This document shows positions 13,019 to 21,833 of a stretch of DNA of 64,000 nucleotides, piece by piece. This DNA is from an uncultured Acidobacteriaceae bacterium (GTDB taxonomy: Bacteria; Acidobacteriota; Terriglobia; Terriglobales; Acidobacteriaceae), in the NCBI GenBank assembly GCA_963732255.1, contig CAVSYV010000008.1, positions 42,649 through 106,648 on the forward strand. The letters are read 5' to 3'. Position 1 is the stretch's first letter. Each line of letters opens with the position of its first letter. The notes under the pieces are model-generated. The model was not told where the DNA came from, did no database searches, and saw only the letters and a list, made by a program, of their open reading frames with translations. The position numbers were made by a program, and so were the translations under genes.

Positions 13019-13705
13019 GTGCGTAGCGGCTTGCTGGAGATTTTCCAAGAGAGTTACAGGGAGTTGCGTCCCGAAACTTCCCTTCCCCCACTCAAGATCG
13101 AATTCTTCGCTTTTGCCAACGTTAACAACACGGTTCGCTTGCGGGACGGAGAATTGCGTGTCAGACTCTCCGACCTGCTGGAGGGTTCGCCCGAAAGCGT
13201 TCTGCGGGCGATCGCTCATATTTTGCTGGCCAAGATGTACCGCAAACCCATCGATCGCGGACATGCCGCCCGTTATCGCCGATATGTCGCCAGCCACGAA
13301 ATCGTACAAAAGGCGCACCTGGTGCGGCAGATACGAGGGCGTAAGATTCTGCGTTCTCCTCAGGGGTATTTTTACGATCTCGATAAGATATTCGAAGACT
13401 TAAACGCTCGTTTCTTTCACGGACTGCTGGCGCGGCCGCGCATGAGCTGGAGTCCGACCAGGACTCGCCGCATCCTGGGCCATTATGATCCAGCGCACAA
13501 TGCCATCATCATCAGCCGCATCTTCGATCATCCGGCGGTCCCGCGTTATGCAGTCGAATATATCGTTTACCACGAAATGCTGCACCTCAAGCATCCGGTC
13601 AAACTCCGCGGGAGCCGCCGTTGCGTGCACCCCGTGGAGTTTCAGGCGGAAGAGAGATTATTCCCGCAACTGGCGGAAGCGAACACGTTCTTGAAGCGTT
13701 TGTGA
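13019..13705 (+). CDS. DUF45/YgjP-like (M48/SprT-like) zinc metallopeptidase
   Basis: HExxH motif in VYHEMLHLKH near the C-terminus, followed by HPVEFQAEERLFP, as in the YgjP/DUF45 family. GTG start. Confidence 0.65.
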   Translation: MRSGLLEIFQESYRELRPETSLPPLKIEFFAFANVNNTVRLRDGELRVRLSDLLEGSPESVLRAIAHILLAKMYRKPIDRGHAARYRRYVASHEIVQKAHLVRQIRGRKILRSPQGYFYDLDKIFEDLNARFFHGLLARPRMSWSPTRTRRILGHYDPAHNAIIISRIFDHPAVPRYAVEYIVYHEMLHLKHPVKLRGSRRCVHPVEFQAEERLFPQLAEANTFLKRL

Positions 13706-13925
13706 GGTTTCCGGCCGCGACAATGCAAGTATCAGGTACACCGTTCTCCGCATCCAATAACCTTTAAGCACTCGAATTCCGCATCTGCAGGCGCCCGCCG
13801 CACCGCTGGCTGCGCCATTCGTTGACGCCTCTGGCGAATGAGGCATATTCTTTAAAATGTTGGGGTTGACGGTGATTTTCACAATTATTTCATTATCGGC
13901 CAAGCTCTACAGGAAATTCCTCTAA

Positions 13926-15176
13926 ATGATTCAGGCTTTCATCATTACTTTGCGCGAAGGAGTGGAAGCGGCACTGATTGTCGGGATCACGCTGGCCTAC
14001 CTGCGCAAAATAGGCCGCAACGATTTGCGCAGAACAGTTTACGCAGCACTGGTTGCGGCTTTTGTGGGCAGCATTGCCGTCGCCATTGTTATTTCCCGCA
14101 CTAATCTGAACGAAGACATTTTCGAAGGCTGGATCATGCTGGTTGCAGCTGTCTTTGTCATCAGCATGGTGGTCTTCATGATGAGGACAGGCCGCAAACT
14201 CAAAGGCGAAATCGAAGGCAAGGTCGGTTCGCTCGCCGTCAAGAACGCAGCCTTCGGCCTGTTCGCATTCGTATTTCTCATGGTCTTGCGTGAGGGCGCG
14301 GAAACCGTGCTGATTCTTTCGGCGGTCACGCTGAACTCGACCGAATTGATGAGTTTTCTGGGGACACTGGCGGGGGTGATCGCTGCCATTGCATTTGGCG
14401 TGATGTTCGTCAAAGGCAGCGTGCGCATCAACCTGCAGAAATTTTTCCGTGTGACCACGGCGATCTTATTCCTGGTCGCGGCTCAACTGATCATCTCCGG
14501 CTTACACGAACTATCGGAGAATGGCGTGCTTCCATCTTCCCGTCGAGAGATGGCGATTGTCGGCCCGATCGTCCGCAACGAATTATTTTTTGTCGTGACC
14601 ATCGTGGCGCTGGCCGTTCTCATGATTTTGTTTGACGCTAAACGCCGCGAACCGCGGATGGAGGCGGCGTCTCCCGCCGAAAAGCGTAAGGCGCTTTGGA
14701 GCGCGCGCCGCGAGCGCCTGTGGACGGGTGCGGTTTACGTCTTCTCCTTTGTGTTCATCGCGCTGGTGACCGCCGAGTTCATATACACAAAGAGCGTCAG
14801 CGCACTTTCCCCGGCGACCGAAGTTACCTTCGTCAATGGCATGCTATCGATTCCGCTGAGCCAGGTTTCCGATGGCGATTTGCACCGCTACCAGGCGCGC
14901 GAAAATGGAGTCGAGGTGCGCTTTTGGCTGTATAAGAAGCCGGACGGAAAGGTCGCGACAGTTCTTGACGCTTGCGAGATTTGCGGCGCTTCCGGCTTTT
15001 ACAAGACTTCCAATGGAGTGGCTTGCAGAAATTGCGGGGCGCCGATCAATCCGCAATCGATCGGCAGCAAGGGCGGCTGCAATCCGATTCCTCTGAAGGC
15101 GACGCAAACCGCAGACGCGGTGATCGTCGAAGAGGCTGACTTGGCGGCGCATAGCCGCATGTTTGAGCCACAATAA
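13926..15176 (+). CDS. FTR1/EfeU-family iron permease fused to a C-terminal Cys-rich DUF2318-like domain
   Basis: Two RExxE iron-permease motifs (LREGVEAALIV and LREGAETVLIL) in a multi-TM N-terminal half. After an extra TM helix, the C-terminal part carries DACEICGASGFYK...CRNCGAPI...GGCNPIPL, resembling DUF2318/COG4393. Confidence 0.8.
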   Translation: MIQAFIITLREGVEAALIVGITLAYLRKIGRNDLRRTVYAALVAAFVGSIAVAIVISRTNLNEDIFEGWIMLVAAVFVISMVVFMMRTGRKLKGEIEGKVGSLAVKNAAFGLFAFVFLMVLREGAETVLILSAVTLNSTELMSFLGTLAGVIAAIAFGVMFVKGSVRINLQKFFRVTTAILFLVAAQLIISGLHELSENGVLPSSRREMAIVGPIVRNELFFVVTIVALAVLMILFDAKRREPRMEAASPAEKRKALWSARRERLWTGAVYVFSFVFIALVTAEFIYTKSVSALSPATEVTFVNGMLSIPLSQVSDGDLHRYQARENGVEVRFWLYKKPDGKVATVLDACEICGASGFYKTSNGVACRNCGAPINPQSIGSKGGCNPIPLKATQTADAVIVEEADLAAHSRMFEPQ

Positions 15177-15179
15177 CCA

Positions 15180-16457
15180 ATGTTCGCACGCCTGGTCTAC
15201 GAATCTTTCCGGCGGCAAAAACGGCGCAAGTTGCTGGCCGGCGCAGCGATCACTCTCGGCGTCACGGTGGCGACGGCAATGATTGGAGTCGCCACCGACA
15301 TCGGTGATAAGATCAGCCGCGAGTTGCGCACCATCGGCGCAAACCTGGTAGTGACACCGCAGGATGAAACGCTGGATGTAGAAATCGGCGGCGTCCATCT
15401 CCAACCTCCGAGCGACAACGCATATCTCAGCGAATCCGACCTGCCGAAAATTAAAGGAATTTTCTGGCACAACAACATCACTGGATTTGCGCCGATGCTG
15501 CCGGTGAACGTGACAGTCGATGTCCCCGCCAAGAGCGGCCTTCAAAAACGAGACGTGACGCTGTTGGGCACTTATTTTGCCAAGCAGGTTTCTTATGGCA
15601 AAGAAAGCGTCGTTACTGGGGTGCGCAAAACCCACTCCTGGTGGAAAGTTTCGGGAACGTGGCCCGCTGACGACTCTTCCGATGTGTTGATCGGCGAGCG
15701 ACTGGCGCGAACATTGCCCTACAAAGCCGGGGACGAAATAGCGCTCTCGGGACATCGATCGAGAGTCGCGGGAATTTTGTCCAGCGGAGACGAGGAAGAC
15801 GACCAGATTGTCGCACCGCTCGCCTTGGCGCAGGCGATTCTCGGCAAACCCGGCGCGGTGCAACGCATTTATGTGAGCGCGATCACCAAACCCGAAGATG
15901 CTTTGGCGCGCCGCAACCCGCGAAGTCTGGCCGGGCCGATGTACGATCGCTGGTATTGCTCGCCATATCCTCAATCGATTGCTTTTCAGTTGCAGGAAGC
16001 CATTCCCCACTCGCACGCGGAACAGATTCGCCAGGTGGAGCAAAATGAAGGCGCGGTGCTGACCAAGGTCGAGGGGTTGTTTTTTCTGGTAACGCTGGCC
16101 GCGCTGCTGGCCGCTGCCCTTGCCGTTTCTGCCGCGATGGCTACGGCAATTTTTGAGCGGCGCAGTGAAGTCGGACTGATGAAAGCTCTGGGGGCGGGAA
16201 AGATGGCGGTCGCGTCGATCTTCTTTGCCGAGGCGACCTTACTCGCGCTCATTGGAGGCCTCGTCGGCTTTGCCGTGGGCAGCGTGCTGGCCCGCCAGAT
16301 TGGCCGCACTATTTTCAACTCGCAGATTTCGGTACAGCCAGTGTTGTTGCCGGTTATTCTTCTGATCGCTGTTTTCGTGACGGTCGCTGGAAGCGCTACC
16401 GCCATTCGTGGCGCAGTCAGCCTGGATCCGGTTTATGCTCTGCGAGGCGAACTGTGA
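15180..16457 (+). CDS. MacB/FtsX-type ABC transporter permease
   Basis: 425 aa: N-terminal TM, large periplasmic domain, and a C-terminal FtsX module (ERRSEVGLMKALGAGKMAVASIFFAEA...). Confidence 0.8.
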   Translation: MFARLVYESFRRQKRRKLLAGAAITLGVTVATAMIGVATDIGDKISRELRTIGANLVVTPQDETLDVEIGGVHLQPPSDNAYLSESDLPKIKGIFWHNNITGFAPMLPVNVTVDVPAKSGLQKRDVTLLGTYFAKQVSYGKESVVTGVRKTHSWWKVSGTWPADDSSDVLIGERLARTLPYKAGDEIALSGHRSRVAGILSSGDEEDDQIVAPLALAQAILGKPGAVQRIYVSAITKPEDALARRNPRSLAGPMYDRWYCSPYPQSIAFQLQEAIPHSHAEQIRQVEQNEGAVLTKVEGLFFLVTLAALLAAALAVSAAMATAIFERRSEVGLMKALGAGKMAVASIFFAEATLLALIGGLVGFAVGSVLARQIGRTIFNSQISVQPVLLPVILLIAVFVTVAGSATAIRGAVSLDPVYALRGEL

Positions 16458-17609
16458 AGGCAATCTCAGCCGCTGCGCAGAAACTCGCGGCATCGCGCGC
16501 CTCGAGGTCGCATACTTCCATGTTTCTCCGTATGCTGTTGCGCGCGGCGGTGTTGCGCCGCGGACGGGCCGCCGCAGCGTTCTTGGCCATGGTTGTGGCC
16601 GCGGCCGTCGCAACCGCAGTGCTTAATCTTTACACGGACGTGCAAACGAAATTGCGCCGTGAATTTCGTAACTACGGGGCAAACATGGTGCTGGTTGCCA
16701 AAGACGGTACTTCCCTTCCCGTCGACGCGCTGGCGCAAGTCGAATCAGTCCTTCACGGACGCGGCATCGCCGCGCCCTTCGCCCTGATTGTCGCGCGAAC
16801 CAGCGGCGGCCAACCCGTGGTCGTTGCCGGAACCGACTTCGATTGCGTGAAGCAACTGGATCACTGGTGGTCGGTCAATAAATGGCCGTCTGGGCCGCAT
16901 CAGGCACTGATGGGTGTGCGCGCGCTTTCCGCCATTTCTCCACAGAAGCAACCGTTCGATCTGACATTCACACGACACACAATAAATTTGACGCCTGTGG
17001 GCACGGTAGAGACCGGCGCGGCGGAAGACGATCGCATCTACATTTCTCTCTCCGACTTCACTTCGTGGACTGGGATTCAACCCGCAACAATTGAGGTCGC
17101 AGCCAGCGGCACGCCCGAAGGAAATCGCGGCTGTGATGCACGAGTTGGCTGAGGCCATACCCTCGGTTGAAGTCCGCCCGGTGCGACAGATTATGGAAGG
17201 AGAAGCGCGCGTACTCGGCAAAACGCGCTCCACATTGTTCGCCGCATCGGCGTTAATTGTCTTGACGGCGGCGCTGTGCGTGCTTTCCACGCTGATGGGC
17301 TGGGTGTTTGACCGGCGCAAGGACTTCGCTATGATGAAGGCCCTGGGCGCTTCGGGCGCGCTGCTGAGCGGTTTTTTCGCCGCTGAGGCAGCTACCCTGG
17401 GGGCTGTGGGCGCGTTGATTGGATACGTGGTTGGTATCGGCATGGCGACGTGGATAGGAAGAGTTAACTTTCATGCTTCCGTCGCGCCGCGCTACGGCGT
17501 ACTACCAGTCGTAATGGCTGCTAGCATAGCGGTGACGCTGCTGGCGGCGATTTTGCCGATATCGTTATTGCGCCGGGTGCAACCTGCGGTGATTCTGCGG
17601 GGAGAATAA
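16454..17609 (+). pseudogene. Second MacB/FtsX-type ABC permease, interrupted by a frameshift near 17117-17122
   Basis: ORF 16454..17152 gives the N-terminal TM and periplasmic domain up to TIEVAASGTP. ORF 17091..17609 in the next frame continues with KEIAAVMHELAEAIP and the FtsX module (DRRKDFAMMKALGASGALLSGFF). A one-base change in gaagga restores a permease of about 385 aa. Confidence 0.75.
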
Positions 17610-17615
17610 GAGCGG

Positions 17616-18890
17616 ATGATTCAGCTAAAAGACGTGACGAAGCTCTACCCCGCCAAAGCGGACAGCAGCCTCCCTGGCAATGGCGGCGGAGGCAAAGAAG
17701 AAAGCCGCATTCACGCGCTGGATCACGTTTCTTTGCACGTCACTAAGGGCGAATGGCTATCGATCATGGGGCCTTCAGGATCGGGCAAGTCTACGCTCGT
17801 AAATCTCATCGGCTGCCTGGACCGGCCGACGTCCGGTGAGATCTGGCTCGATGGTCAGAATGTTGCGAGCATTTCTTCGGGGGAGCTGACTCGCGTCCGC
17901 GCGGAAAAAATCGGCTTCATCTTTCAACAATTCCATCTGATTCCCTTCCTTTCTGCGATTGAGAACGTAATGCTCGCGCAGTATTTCCACAGTATGACCG
18001 ACGAGAACGAAGCGCTAACAGCGCTGGAGCGTGTCGGCCTTGGCGAGCGGGCCAATCATCTTCCCTCCCAGCTTTCTGGCGGCGAGCAGCAACGTGTGTG
18101 CATTGCGCGCGCCCTGATCAACGATCCCGGAATCATTTTGGCCGACGAGCCCACGGGCAATCTTGACGCGCAGAATGAAGAAATCGTCCTCCGGCTGCTG
18201 CGCGAATTTCATCGTCAAGGCCGAACCATCGTCATGGTTACGCACGATCCCGTGGTCGCGCGCCTGGCCGACCGTCGCATTGAACTGCACCACGGTAAGA
18301 TCGCGGCGCAGGAAGTCTTCGCCATGGCCGACGAAGAACAGATCGACGAGGTGCTTGAAGAGTTATGGGTACTGGCGGAACACGGCGAAATCGCGGAAGT
18401 CGAGCGCATGCAGGTTCACGGTGCGCTGCCCGTCGACGTGGCGATCGAAAAGATGATCGAGATGGGATTGGTCATTTCGACTCCGCATCCTCCGATGTCT
18501 CACGGGCATAAGCCATTCGTGAATCCCTGTCACGATGCGCTCAAGCCGGTGTCAGCGTCGGTGGGCGACGGCACGATGATTGTCGAATTGACCTCCCGCG
18601 GGCGGGAGCGCGCTGGCGGGATTATCCGGCGTCATCGCCTGGCAGAGCGGCTTTTCACCGACAGCCTCGCCATGGATAGCGAAACTGAAATCGAAGAGCA
18701 GGCCTGCAAGTTCGAGCACATTCTCTCGCCGGAAGCGACCGACAAAATCTGCACGTTTCTCGGCCATCCCCACACCTGCCCGCATGGAGCACCCATCCCG
18801 CCGGGTCCGTGCTGCGGAAGGGCGTTTCTCGATTACGCTTCAGTTCACGCCGTCCGCACGCTCATGCAGAAAGATCCCAGTGACCACTAG
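17616..18890 (+). CDS. MacB/LolD-type ABC ATPase fused to a complete DtxR/MntR-like metalloregulator domain
   Basis: N-terminal half: [41 protein letters not shown]-terminal ~180 aa: [18 protein letters not shown] (DtxR-type winged-helix start), then [14 protein letters not shown]...[33 protein letters not shown] (DtxR dimerisation and metal-binding domain). Confidence 0.85.
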
Positions 18891-18914: not shown

Positions 18915-19739
18915 ATGCGGCGTCCCACCATCGGCGTCTTCGATTCCGGCTTCGGCGGCTTGACCGTCCTCAAAGCACTGCTGGAAATCCTTCCCGCAGC
19001 AGACTATTTATATTTCGGCGACACGGCGCGGCTGCCCTACGGCTCCAAATCGGCTGAGACTGTCGCGCGGTACGCCGTGGAAGCCGCGCGTTTCCTTGAA
19101 GACCAGGGCGCCCAGATTTTAGTGATCGCCTGCAATACCGCAACGGCACTGGCTTTGGAGCGGATTGTTCTGGCTGCGCATGTGCCGGTGATTGGCGTGG
19201 TCGAACCCGGCGCGGAAGCCACGGCGCGGGCCAGCGCCAACAAGAAGGCGGTGATCATTGGCACCGAGGCGACGGTGGCCAGCCATGCTTATTACAAGGC
19301 TCTTCAGGCTCGCGGTCTGACGGCGCAGGAGAAAGCCTGCCCGCTGCTGGTTCCTCTGGTTGAAGAGGGATGGACGGATCATCGCGTAACCGAGGAAGTA
19401 GCGCGCATTTATCTGAGCGAAGCTTTTGCCGACGGTTTTGATGATGCTGACGTGCTCCTGCTGGGGTGTACGCACTATCCGCTGCTTCGGCCGTTGCTGC
19501 AAAAAGTGGCGCCGGGGCATGTCAAGATCGTCGACTCGGCGGAATCCACGGCGAACATGGTCGCGGCAGCTTTTGAAAATTACGCACCGGAACCGCAAAC
19601 CCAGTCGTTGGCGGAACGGCGTGGGCTCCCCCGCTTCAAGTTTTTTGCCACGGATTCGGTGGAGAAGTTCCGCAGGCTGGGTCCGCGTTTCCTTGGTCAT
19701 CCGATCAGCGACGTGCAACACGTCGATCTGAAAGAGTGA
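18915..19739 (+). CDS. murI: Glutamate racemase
   Basis: IGVFDSGFGGLTVL, LVIACNTATA, LGCTHYPLL. These include both catalytic Cys motifs. Confidence 0.92.
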   Translation: MRRPTIGVFDSGFGGLTVLKALLEILPAADYLYFGDTARLPYGSKSAETVARYAVEAARFLEDQGAQILVIACNTATALALERIVLAAHVPVIGVVEPGAEATARASANKKAVIIGTEATVASHAYYKALQARGLTAQEKACPLLVPLVEEGWTDHRVTEEVARIYLSEAFADGFDDADVLLLGCTHYPLLRPLLQKVAPGHVKIVDSAESTANMVAAAFENYAPEPQTQSLAERRGLPRFKFFATDSVEKFRRLGPRFLGHPISDVQHVDLKE

Positions 19740-20548: not shown

Positions 20549-21544
20549 TCAGTACAGGTGGAAATCCACCTCGAGCGCGATCTCGACGGCAACCGGATGC
20601 CCGTTTTTCATCGCCGGCTCGAAGCGCCATTTCTTTGCTGCTTCAATGGCTTTCTCGTCGAGTCCCATGCCCAGCGAATTCGCTACCCGAATATTCGTGG
20701 GCCGGCCGTTAGCATCGACCACGAGCATAAGAGTGCAGGTTCCCTGATACTTCGCCTTGCGAGCTTCCTCGGAAAATTCAGGATCGACCTGATAGATCAC
20801 GCGGGGCGCGCTCACGCCGCCGCCTACATGAAAGATTCCGCCGCCAGTTCCGCCGCCTTCGCCAGGCCCAAAACCAGGTCCAGTTCCAGATCCCACCCCA
20901 CCGCCGGAACCCGATCCAATGCCGCCGCCTGCGCCGGTTCCGTTCGAGGGCAACACCGCGCCAGACATGGGATCTCCCAGGTTGGGCATATTATTTGTCG
21001 CCAGTTTCACCTGCGGAGGAATGACAATCGTGGGCTCGACTGGAAGCTTTGGATGCTCGTTTCGCACTACCACCACGGGCGGAGTGATTTGCTGCATGGA
21101 AAACTTGGGTAGCTTACCTTTGGTGGCCTGCAGAACATCCCGATCACCGCCACCGCCACCGCCGCCGACCTGCGTTTTCGATGGTCTCAGCGTCGGCAGA
21201 TCGCCGGGATCGACCAGCGGGATCACTTTTGATTCTGCCTTCGCCGGGGCAATCATGTGGTGCCCGAGAATGGTCAGGCCGATGATGATTCCGATAATGA
21301 AGACGTGTACCGCCGTAGTCCCGGCTGCGGCATCCTTGCGATAGTTATATAAGCCCCAGATGTTTTTGACCGGCTCGGGCTTCGACTCCAGTTTCAGTGG
21401 CGGGAGCTTCTTGGGAAAAAAGAAGTCATCTAACTGGCCGAAGAGCGATTTCCACATCGGCTCTTCCAGGCTGCGGCTCGATAGGAGCAAATTCAGTTCA
21501 GGGTCGTTCCCGGGAACACTCGGATTGGTCGGTATTGGGTCCAT
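20549..21544 (-). CDS. tonB: Energy transducer TonB-family protein
   Basis: Start set at MDPIPTNPS. One TM helix (AVHVFIIGIIIGLTILG), a Gly/Pro-rich linker, and a C-terminal TonB domain (VSAPRVIYQVDPEFSEEARKAKYQGTCTLMLVVDANGRPTNIRV...GLDEKAIEAAKKWRFEPAMKNGHPV). Confidence 0.82.
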   Translation of the reverse strand: MDPIPTNPSVPGNDPELNLLLSSRSLEEPMWKSLFGQLDDFFFPKKLPPLKLESKPEPVKNIWGLYNYRKDAAAGTTAVHVFIIGIIIGLTILGHHMIAPAKAESKVIPLVDPGDLPTLRPSKTQVGGGGGGGDRDVLQATKGKLPKFSMQQITPPVVVVRNEHPKLPVEPTIVIPPQVKLATNNMPNLGDPMSGAVLPSNGTGAGGGIGSGSGGGVGSGTGPGFGPGEGGGTGGGIFHVGGGVSAPRVIYQVDPEFSEEARKAKYQGTCTLMLVVDANGRPTNIRVANSLGMGLDEKAIEAAKKWRFEPAMKNGHPVAVEIALEVDFHLY

Positions 21545-21833
21545 GACGGCTATGGTTTTACGTTGCGCAGAGACACACGGTACCAGTTTAAACAGATGAC
21601 CGGTCCGGCAACCAAGTTGCTTCGTCCTCGAGCGAAAACTAGCAGCCTGGAATGGCCCGCTTTCTGGGTCCAAAAAACGGAGCCAGCCAGCAGCCTCCCG
21701 CTAGCCAAATTGTACCTCTACCGAACCGATTTCCAACAACGATTTCCCGTTAACTCAAGAACATCCCCCGTCATTTTGCCTCTACTTCCGGCGGAACGCG
21801 AACATTAGAAGATTAGGGGCGCAAACGCTAAAT

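Follow-up and report, generated by a model that had tools for sequence, protein, structure and literature searches.

A DtxR-like, putatively metal-sensing module fused to a MacB/LolD-type ABC ATPase in an FTR1 iron-permease operon of Acidobacteriaceae

The gene described here lies in a 64,000-nucleotide stretch of DNA from an uncultured Acidobacteriaceae bacterium (GenBank assembly GCA_963732255.1, contig CAVSYV010000008.1, positions 42,649 to 106,648), which is referred to as the window and numbered from its first letter. An open reading frame (ORF) running from ATG to stop occupies exactly positions 17616..18890 of the forward strand, stop codon included, and encodes 424 amino acids with zero internal stops according to the ORF list and the translation. 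Its product is a fusion of an ATP-binding cassette (ABC) nucleotide-binding domain (NBD) and a putative metal-sensing module of the DtxR type, an NBD::DtxR-like architecture identified through the ORF, Pfam, NCBIfam, tblastn and alignment A1. A first-pass annotation, made from the letters of this DNA alone, had proposed the combination of an NBD, a DtxR-like module and an iron-permease operon, and all three were seen when Pfam, profile, fold and operon annotation were brought to bear. The architecture and the fold of the protein, its conserved metal ligands, the replacement of its DNA-contact positions and its operon linkage were observed directly. With a probability that we put at about one half, the module is a cytoplasmic Fe2+ sensor that acts as an allosteric brake on the ATPase, by a trans-inhibition like that of MetN and ModC exerted through a different fold.

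A scan of one genome per species returned at least 546 stretches coding for relatives of the C-terminal part; the best 80 of these were surveyed across the junction by tblastn with the 424-aa protein. The match was one unbroken high-scoring segment pair in 77 of the 80 loci, extending from residue 1 to about residue 400-424 in 76 of them and starting from residue 27 in the other (L041). Judged by contig names, the set draws on several assemblers and includes k-mer-assembled contigs. Apparent splits in L001, L002, L004 and L072 proved to be frame breaks by tblastn; in the two loci inspected closely (L001 and L002) the neighbouring genes on the contig are fragmented too, and the ATPase gene of L002 is 5'-truncated. 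The fusion occurs in three clades that share about 50% identity, and its frame is unbroken in clades 2 and 3 as well as in clade 1, the Terriglobia clade of the window. Clade 2 has a fusion of about 360 aa, with a reference protein named Candidatus Polarisedimenticolia and other members labelled simply Acidobacteriota, and clade 3, known from soil metagenome contigs, has one of about 400 aa. Shorter database proteins of 182-330 aa begin at internal Met codons or contig ends, and the 182-299-aa homologues were ruled out as separate genes, being internal-Met calls or frameshifted contigs. That assembly or sequencing error joined adjacent genes for an ATPase and a small DtxR-like regulator might be suspected from the frameshift in the neighbouring permease gene of the window and from database entries that are 182-aa proteins starting at M237 (P0041), but the unbroken frame in these independent species genomes and in two further clades, together with the origin of the short entries, leaves this explanation a negligible chance. 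The NBD/DtxR junction is an evolved feature and not an artefact.

Nearly all of the best 80 loci carry Acidobacteriota names, mostly Candidatus Sulfotelmatobacter or Acidobacteriaceae, and the source names of the carriers often refer to bog, palsa, spruce-peatland and other soil samples. Two operons that are 86-88% identical to that of the window are labelled Verrucomicrobiia and Candidatus Aquilonibacter (L007 and L020), labels that probably reflect mis-binned contigs rather than transfer. The fusion proteins bear generic source names ('ATP-binding cassette domain-containing protein', 'ABC-type glutathione transport system ATPase component' and 'Mn-dependent DtxR family transcriptional regulator'). 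A search of the literature for the NBD::DtxR architecture found no paper, which is consistent with the earlier remark that it was uncharacterised.

The N-terminal half of the protein (residues 1-234; 17616..18317, forward strand) was delimited by Pfam, NCBIfam, the structure model, Foldseek and alignment A1. Pfam ABC_tran matched residues 35-180 (E 2e-35), and the catalytic motifs are all present in the sequence: Walker A GPSGSGKST (G52-T60), the Q-loop glutamines QQ at 104-105, the signature LSGGE (L153-E157), the Walker B stretch ILADEPT with D177 and E178, and the H-loop histidine H210. The standard MacB/LolD-type NBD that had been read in residues 1 to about 240 is thus present. The top NCBIfam models for this half were MacB, LolD, DarD and FtsE, all well under their equivalog cut-offs; the scores were 200-220 bits where 265-966 are required, so that this half does not qualify as an equivalog of LolD, MacB or FtsE. 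Because the scores sit so far below these cut-offs, we class the N-terminal ~234 residues as a MacB/LolD-like NBD, which is a relative of the named proteins and none of them itself. An AlphaFold model of the full-length protein (pLDDT 76.6, pTM 0.57) had MJ0796, MacB and LolD as its nearest solved structures in Foldseek. As a route to the C-terminal half the same search was rejected, its matches being to the NBD only. A Gly-rich, low-complexity insertion at residues ~12-30 (17649-17705) lies inside the first beta-hairpin of the NBD, with pLDDT below 50; it is clade-specific and absent from clade 2.

The C-terminal half is, by profile and fold, a DtxR domain 1 plus domain 2 (residues 237-400). 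Its dimerisation and metal-binding domain (residues 327-400; 18594..18815, forward strand) was recognised by Pfam, by PDB alignments and by invariant columns in alignments A1, A2 and A3; the Pfam match to Fe_dep_repr_C (PF02742) spans residues 326-395 (E 9e-26; 90 bits against a cut-off of 27), in agreement with the first-pass placement of such a domain at the end of the protein. The divergent winged helix ahead of it, equivalent to DtxR domain 1 (residues 237-326; 18324..18593, forward strand), was harder to detect. Pfam gave no match to PF01325 (Fe_dep_repress) in the 424-aa protein even at E<=1, so that ABC_tran and Fe_dep_repr_C were confirmed and Fe_dep_repress was not, and a single-sequence phmmer search against the PDB aligned residues ~323-397 only, to residues 60-136 of IdeR/DtxR. 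Profile A3, built from the window's C-terminal part and its free-standing relatives with no NBD rows, gave an alignment to IdeR/DtxR that starts at residue ~8 and takes in every domain (E 4e-27). Profile A2 was discarded for this purpose, as NBD columns had entered it and its PDB search was flooded by ABC ATPases. An AlphaFold model of residues 232-424 (pLDDT 86.9, pTM 0.81) superposed in Foldseek on two-domain IdeR/DtxR with a target-normalised TM of 0.75-0.78 over ~157 columns, and all 50 listed structural neighbours of this model belong to the DtxR family, with none of the C2/NIL or TOBE type. The DtxR/MntR-like winged-helix opening claimed before escapes Pfam and phmmer but is recovered by the profile and by the AlphaFold/Foldseek comparison. 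The earlier description as 'full DtxR-like' is valid for domains 1 and 2, because profile and fold both align there, and fails for the third, SH3-like domain of DtxR/IdeR, which is absent from the fusion.

Within the winged helix, the models, Foldseek and the profile alignment distinguish helix a1 (237-256, with E241, D244, E245 and E248), an a3-like helix (273-282) and two wing strands (286-290 and 321-325). Helix a2 is reduced to one strand and one turn in both the full-length and the 232-424 model. The a1 residues E241, D244, E245, L247, E248, W251 and E255 are kept across clades in alignment A1. At the wing tip lies a His/Cys-rich insertion of 32 residues (289-320; 18480..18575, forward strand), seen in alignment A1 and of low pLDDT in the models; it is confined to the Terriglobia clade, within which its dN/dS (ratio of nonsynonymous to synonymous substitution rates) is ~0.06. 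The C-terminal tail (residues 401-424; 18816..18887, forward strand) is a predicted helix by the models, varies between clades in alignment A1 and occupies the place of the SH3-like domain of canonical DtxR/IdeR. The linker to the ATPase is very short; in the full-length model the last NBD strand ends at 234 and a1 begins at 236. Other partners of the same DtxR domain 2 were noticed in P0203 and P0243, in the form of a transketolase-like N-terminus (possibly a chimeric gene call) and a combination of DtxR-C, FeoA and FMN_bind.

The metal ligands of DtxR/IdeR were followed into the fusion through PDB and profile alignments. H79, E83, C102, E105 and H106 correspond to the identical residues H340, E344, C364, E367 and H368, and the positions of M10 and H98 are now carboxylates (E245 and E360), which we take to resemble the arrangement in the Mn sensor MntR. 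All seven ligand-equivalent positions are invariant or nearly so across clades, and the stretch RRHRLAE (338-344) is conserved in A1. Metal selectivity of DtxR as against MntR goes with this Cys, a retained Cys being read as Fe2+. Because the Cys102 equivalent (C364) is retained, Fe2+ is most likely the metal of the predicted site. Beyond that site, an extra invariant Cys4/His2 cluster was observed (C379, H384, C388, H390, C399 and C400; 18750-18815), with the motif C..GHP..CPHG..IP.G.CC. It is common to the free-standing relatives (A1, A2 and A3), and in IdeR, which reads LGNPTTSPYGNPIPG at this position, the cluster is replaced. A structural Zn site and an Fe-S site are both conceivable there.

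The fusion is consistently linked to an iron permease. The operon was compared in 82 loci (80 genome loci and two metagenome contigs), and wherever the upstream flank was long enough (77 loci) the order was FTR1::FtrD, FtsX, FtsX, fusion (77/77). The same order was found in 38 of 38 metagenome-set loci, three clade-2 loci included, which answers in the affirmative the question raised at the outset, whether NBD::DtxR fusions always neighbour FTR1 genes. The iron-permease assignment of the first-pass annotation was borne out by Pfam at 13926..15176 (forward strand), which encodes an FTR1 iron permease (residues 1-200, E 9e-39) fused to an FtrD-like (former DUF2318) Cys-rich domain (residues 314-413, E 5e-30). 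It is followed on the same strand by FtsX/MacB-type permease 1 with its periplasmic MacB_PCD domain (15180..16457; Pfam MacB_PCD and FtsX) and by permease 2 of the same type (16454..17609; same Pfam models), which the ORF list of the window gives as two ORFs (16454..17152 and 17091..17609).

A comparable cluster is known from Campylobacter jejuni. The cFtr1-P19 cluster CJJ81176_1649-1656 consists of FTR1, P19, a DUF2318 protein, two FtsX permeases, an ATPase and thioredoxins; C. jejuni depends on it to acquire iron, a Fur box precedes it, and no role has been assigned to its ABC part (PMC6083913). The window has the same FTR1, DUF2318/FtrD-like, two FtsX and MacB-type ATPase components in the same order. 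Unlike the C. jejuni cluster, it combines FTR1 and the FtrD-like domain in one protein, and no P19 or thioredoxin gene was found within 13926-18890 or directly flanking it, P19 not having been searched in the rest of the window. The ATPase of the window also carries the DtxR-like module, which is not described for the C. jejuni ATPase (PMC6083913).

An ABC ATPase with a C-terminal regulatory domain is a known kind of protein; what is new in the fusion is the metalloregulator fold, the type VII motor and the FTR1 iron system. The C2 domain of MetN and the corresponding domain of ModC lie C-terminal to the NBD, dimerise and, when substrate is bound, hold the NBDs apart (PMC10710835). As in MetN (C2/NIL; E. 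coli MetNI) and ModC (TOBE-like; M. acetivorans ModBC), the extra domain of the fusion directly follows the NBD, and by analogy the regulatory domains of two ATPase copies would be expected to pair under the NBD dimer, with the imported ion as the presumed ligand. In contrast to both, the regulatory fold is wholly different (a DtxR winged helix and a helical dimerisation domain), the fusion belongs to a type VII (MacB/FtsX mechanotransmitter) machine and not to a type I importer, the metal would enter by the separate FTR1 permease and not by the ABC permeases, and regulation is a prediction only in the case of the fusion. FbpC, the ATPase of the Neisseria ferric-iron ABC importer, is likewise an iron-uptake ATPase with a C-terminal domain thought to be regulatory (PMC2896483). 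MetNI chains appeared among the structural neighbours of the full model in Foldseek, by way of the NBD. We take the C-terminal domain of FbpC to be TOBE/MalK-like and not DtxR-like, and FbpC itself to be the ATPase of a type I importer.

Of the two roles that the first-pass annotation had offered for the module, trans-inhibition of the transporter is favoured because the DtxR metal-ligand positions are conserved and the module lies C-terminal to the NBD as in MetN and ModC, and the role of operon repressor is disfavoured by the replaced DNA-contact positions described below. Activation of DtxR itself works through the primary metal site, which links a1 in domain 1 with domain 2 and re-orients domain 1. 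We infer dimerisation, metal binding and an allosteric effect of inhibitory sign along similar lines. The complex would be of the type VII MacB/LolCDE type, with two different FtsX permeases and two ATPase copies working together with FTR1::FtrD. Two domain-2 halves would dimerise under the NBD dimer; metal would then bridge a1 (D244/E245/E248) and domain 2 (H340, E344, E360, C364, E367 and H368), and domain 1 would swing. With no more than ~2-5 residues between the last NBD strand and a1, this motion could reset the NBD-NBD spacing so that ATP-driven closure is blocked, and iron uptake would stop in an iron-replete cell. A fold that in DtxR governs transcription would thereby have been put to use in regulating a pump directly, at the post-translational level.

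Iron in excess is toxic, and the usual account of its uptake by bacteria is one of transcriptional control, by Fur or DtxR. Among ABC-linked systems for iron uptake, we are aware of no established case of a brake that is direct, fast and post-translational. Should such a brake exist here, a classic transcription-factor fold would have become an allosteric transporter domain, trans-inhibition would extend to type VII (MacB-type) ABC machines, and there would be a way into the unexplained role of the FtsX/ATPase half in FTR1/P19-type iron systems, which are widespread. Given the at least 546 genome stretches and the bog, palsa, peatland and soil source names, the module may also shape iron handling in Fe2+-rich environments.

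A different role for the module would be that of a constitutive scaffold joining two ATPases, or of an acceptor that takes Fe2+ from the FTR1 exit for hand-off, with the motor left unregulated. We regard this as unlikely, though it deserves some weight. DtxR domain 2 is by its Pfam name a dimerisation domain, the Cys4/His2 cluster and the His/Cys-rich wing insertion exceed the metal sites of a simple switch, and the fusion is tied specifically to FTR1::FtrD operons. On the other hand, NBDs of the MacB/LolD type function in the absence of any such domain, and the description of the C. jejuni homologue goes no further than a cytoplasmic ATPase. The invariant residues are moreover exactly the ligands of the DtxR regulatory site, which argues for sensing rather than mere dimerisation. 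We also know of no precedent for a DtxR fold as a metallochaperone.

The relationship to DtxR, IdeR and MntR bears on the possibility that the fusion is also a repressor. The fold of domains 1 and 2 matches that of the fused module (TM ~0.77 to two-domain IdeR), and the motif RRHRLAERL is identical along with the five shared ligands. The fusion differs from these regulators in its N-terminal ABC ATPase, the lack of an SH3-like domain, the extra Cys4/His2 cluster, the 32-residue wing insertion (in the window's clade only) and a helix-turn-helix (HTH) that PF01325 does not see, in which a2 is reduced and the DNA-contact positions are hydrophobic or acidic. An exhaustive search of cluster representatives found the closest non-fused relatives to be ~218-aa proteins with Fe_dep_repr_C and FeoA/SH3 and no PF01325 match. 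These free-standing 'DtxR-C + FeoA/SH3' proteins (Elusimicrobiota, Omnitrophota, Saganbacteria and others) are ~30-45% identical to the whole fused C-terminal part, with higher identity across the metal-binding domain, and share with it the shortened HTH and the invariant CxFEH and C..HP..CPHG..IP.G.CC motifs. They differ from the fused module in standing alone, in ending with a FeoA/SH3 domain and in having an HTH richer in Lys/Arg, and because of the last of these they may be genuine DNA-binding regulators. In both contexts examined the free-standing ~218-aa gene directly follows feoB (L083, 5001-5657; L086, 5001-5648), and no gene with a separate FeoA match was seen in the L083 and L086 loci shown; instead of being ordinary repressors, the proteins might partner FeoB as FeoA does and carry a metal sensor of their own. 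Since both directly follow feoB, a general link of this Cys-rich DtxR subfamily to Fe2+ transporters is hinted at.

In its repressor form, the fusion would be a dual-function subunit, a membrane-tethered ATPase that is also a metal-dependent repressor of its own operon, with its winged helices on a palindrome beside the -10 element. The complete two-domain DtxR fold with its HTH-like unit speaks for such a role, as do the annotation of the feoB-adjoining free-standing relatives as DtxR-family regulators and three features described below, namely the palindrome, the purifying selection on the winged helix and the basic a3 helix of clade 2. We nevertheless consider it improbable, because the DNA contacts are replaced, the HTH is acidic, the segment is the least conserved of the protein between clades, clade 2 has its own Fur and the window has lost the operator.

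The DNA-facing surface was compared through profile alignments and A2 rows, with a contact list (R27, R29, S37, P39, T40, S42, Q43, R47 and R50) that we take to represent the DtxR/IdeR-DNA structures. R27, R29 and R50 correspond to E261, E263 and E282, S42 to D274, S37 to L271, P39 to V273, Q43 to V275 and R47 to K279, and T40/V41 are deleted, a loss of two residues at the start of the recognition helix. All of the contact-aligned positions except R47 (K279) are thus replaced, three by Glu and one by Asp. IdeR variants P39G and Q43A were crystallised with a DNA site (PDB 7b24 and 7b25), so that P39 and Q43 count as recognition determinants. The a1-a3 stretch has a net charge of -12 with 2 Lys/Arg (4 Lys/Arg in the whole 237-325 segment), against about -4 and 7-8 Lys/Arg in three canonical proteins. 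As a test of DNA binding, net charge was set aside as suggestive only, canonical DtxR HTH domains being net negative too. Between clades, entropy is highest in a2, a3 and the wing (1.3-1.9 bits, the least conserved parts) and 0.6-0.8 bits in the metal domain, tail and NBD; in the a2-a3 of Saccharopolyspora and M. tuberculosis IdeR, 2 of 28 positions differ in the profile-search alignments. Geometry is a further objection, since a 235-residue NBD on a ~2-residue linker at the N-terminus of a1 would be expected to clash with DNA. The a1 N-terminus presumably lies beside the DNA in DtxR-DNA complexes.

A sigma-70-like promoter was located at 13822..13851 (forward strand; TTGACG, a 16-18 nt spacer and CATATT/TATTCT) by a promoter scan that gave 2 sites against 0.4 expected, and the same arrangement, TTGAC[GT]-N17-TATCCT, precedes the FTR1 gene in relatives as a conserved feature. 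Shortly after the -10 element, most clade 1 relatives carry the operator TTGAAATTGAAATTCATTTTCAA, a 23-bp near-palindrome found once per locus (for example at 3512-3534 in L005). A pattern scan found it exactly in 61 of 82 loci and with <=4 mismatches in 71 of 82, in loci whose proteins are only ~78% identical. In clade 3 the operator is AGTTGCAAATCATTTTCAACT after TACACT (L095 and others), and in clade 2 it is ATTGAGnCTCAAT after the -10 element (L088, 3347; L089, 3669). The clade operators are variants of a 7-1-7 or 8-1-8 inverted repeat and, in our own reading, resemble Fur-family boxes. At the operator position of the window (13860..13896, forward strand; upstream regions compared by eye) there is only a diverged AT-rich remnant, TTGGGGTTGACGGTGATTTTCACAATTATTTCATTATC; no match to the operator with <=6 mismatches was found in the window, and no inverted repeat in 13700-13930. 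Loss of the operator with retention of the fusion is seen in the window and in L003, its closest relative.

The first gene of the clade 2 operons belongs to the Fur family. Between L088 and L089, which have almost the same operator, the predicted recognition helix of this Fur (VSRATLYRTL) is identical although overall identity is ~50% by tblastn; the DtxR-like a3 helix, in contrast, differs at most of its exposed positions. No Fur gene was found in the window, nor in the 8 kb on either side of the Terriglobia operons, so the regulator in Terriglobia must be encoded elsewhere. Because the Fur helix of clade 2 is constant where a3 varies, and because the window and L003 keep the fusion without the operator, we favour transcription of the operon under a Fur-family protein acting on the Fur-box-like palindrome, with the module as something else; this preference comes from comparison of sequences.

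Several points weigh against a transport-regulating role for the module. The operator and the fusion co-occur in all three fusion-bearing clades, the strongly conserved palindrome overlapping the promoter in each, so that Fur and the DtxR-like domain are not cleanly separated as its reader. Purifying selection acts strongly on the winged-helix segment, insertion included, in the window's clade; dN/dS of the module is ~0.04 across 15 Terriglobia relatives, L003 included, with dS near saturation. Because of this low ratio we read the segment as not decaying and ascribe to it a clade-specific role, perhaps docking on the NBD. The a3 helix of clade 2 is more basic (RMRSRG), for which reason residual DNA affinity of the clade 2 module is conceivable. 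The interdomain geometry of the full-length model is uncertain, as its pTM reflects. Inhibition is preferred to activation on physiological grounds alone, and trans-inhibition by substrate assumes that the ABC part serves iron import, the FtsX/ATPase components having no assigned substrate or role even in C. jejuni.

A module that does both, braking the ABC motor and at the same time holding the promoter at the membrane and repressing it in iron-replete cells (a 'trigger transporter'), is quite improbable. It would link transport flux to transcription, and would make the free-standing, FeoB-linked relatives an ancestral two-component version of the fusion.

Additional conserved sites were observed near the promoters of other loci. 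Many Terriglobia loci (for example L057, L036 and L063) have a second site ~25 bp upstream of the -35 element, TGTGATCCTAATCACA, of the CRP/FNR type TGTGA-N6-TCACA, and in clade 3 (for example L095 and L101) GGACCA-N4-TGGTCC abuts the -35 element. Both are absent from the window. The sites suggest an extra activator input, perhaps oxygen or redox.

The two ORFs of permease 2 result from a +1 frameshift at ~17108-17126 of the window; the two halves are in one frame in both relatives checked (L003 and L005). One extra base, ...GGCACGCCC[G]AAGGAAATC..., would restore the G-T-P-K-E-I of the relatives. The frameshift is either a sequencing error or an inactivating mutation, and if it is real the pump is broken in the source organism. 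The operon is flanked by a SprT-like gene and an Asp/Glu racemase gene. The latter, of the Asp/Glu racemase family (18915-19739), starts 24 bp after the fusion, is syntenic in 78 of 82 loci and may be part of the operon. On the opposite strand, a gene with a TonB C-terminal domain (20549-21673, reverse strand) is syntenic in 67 of 82 loci.

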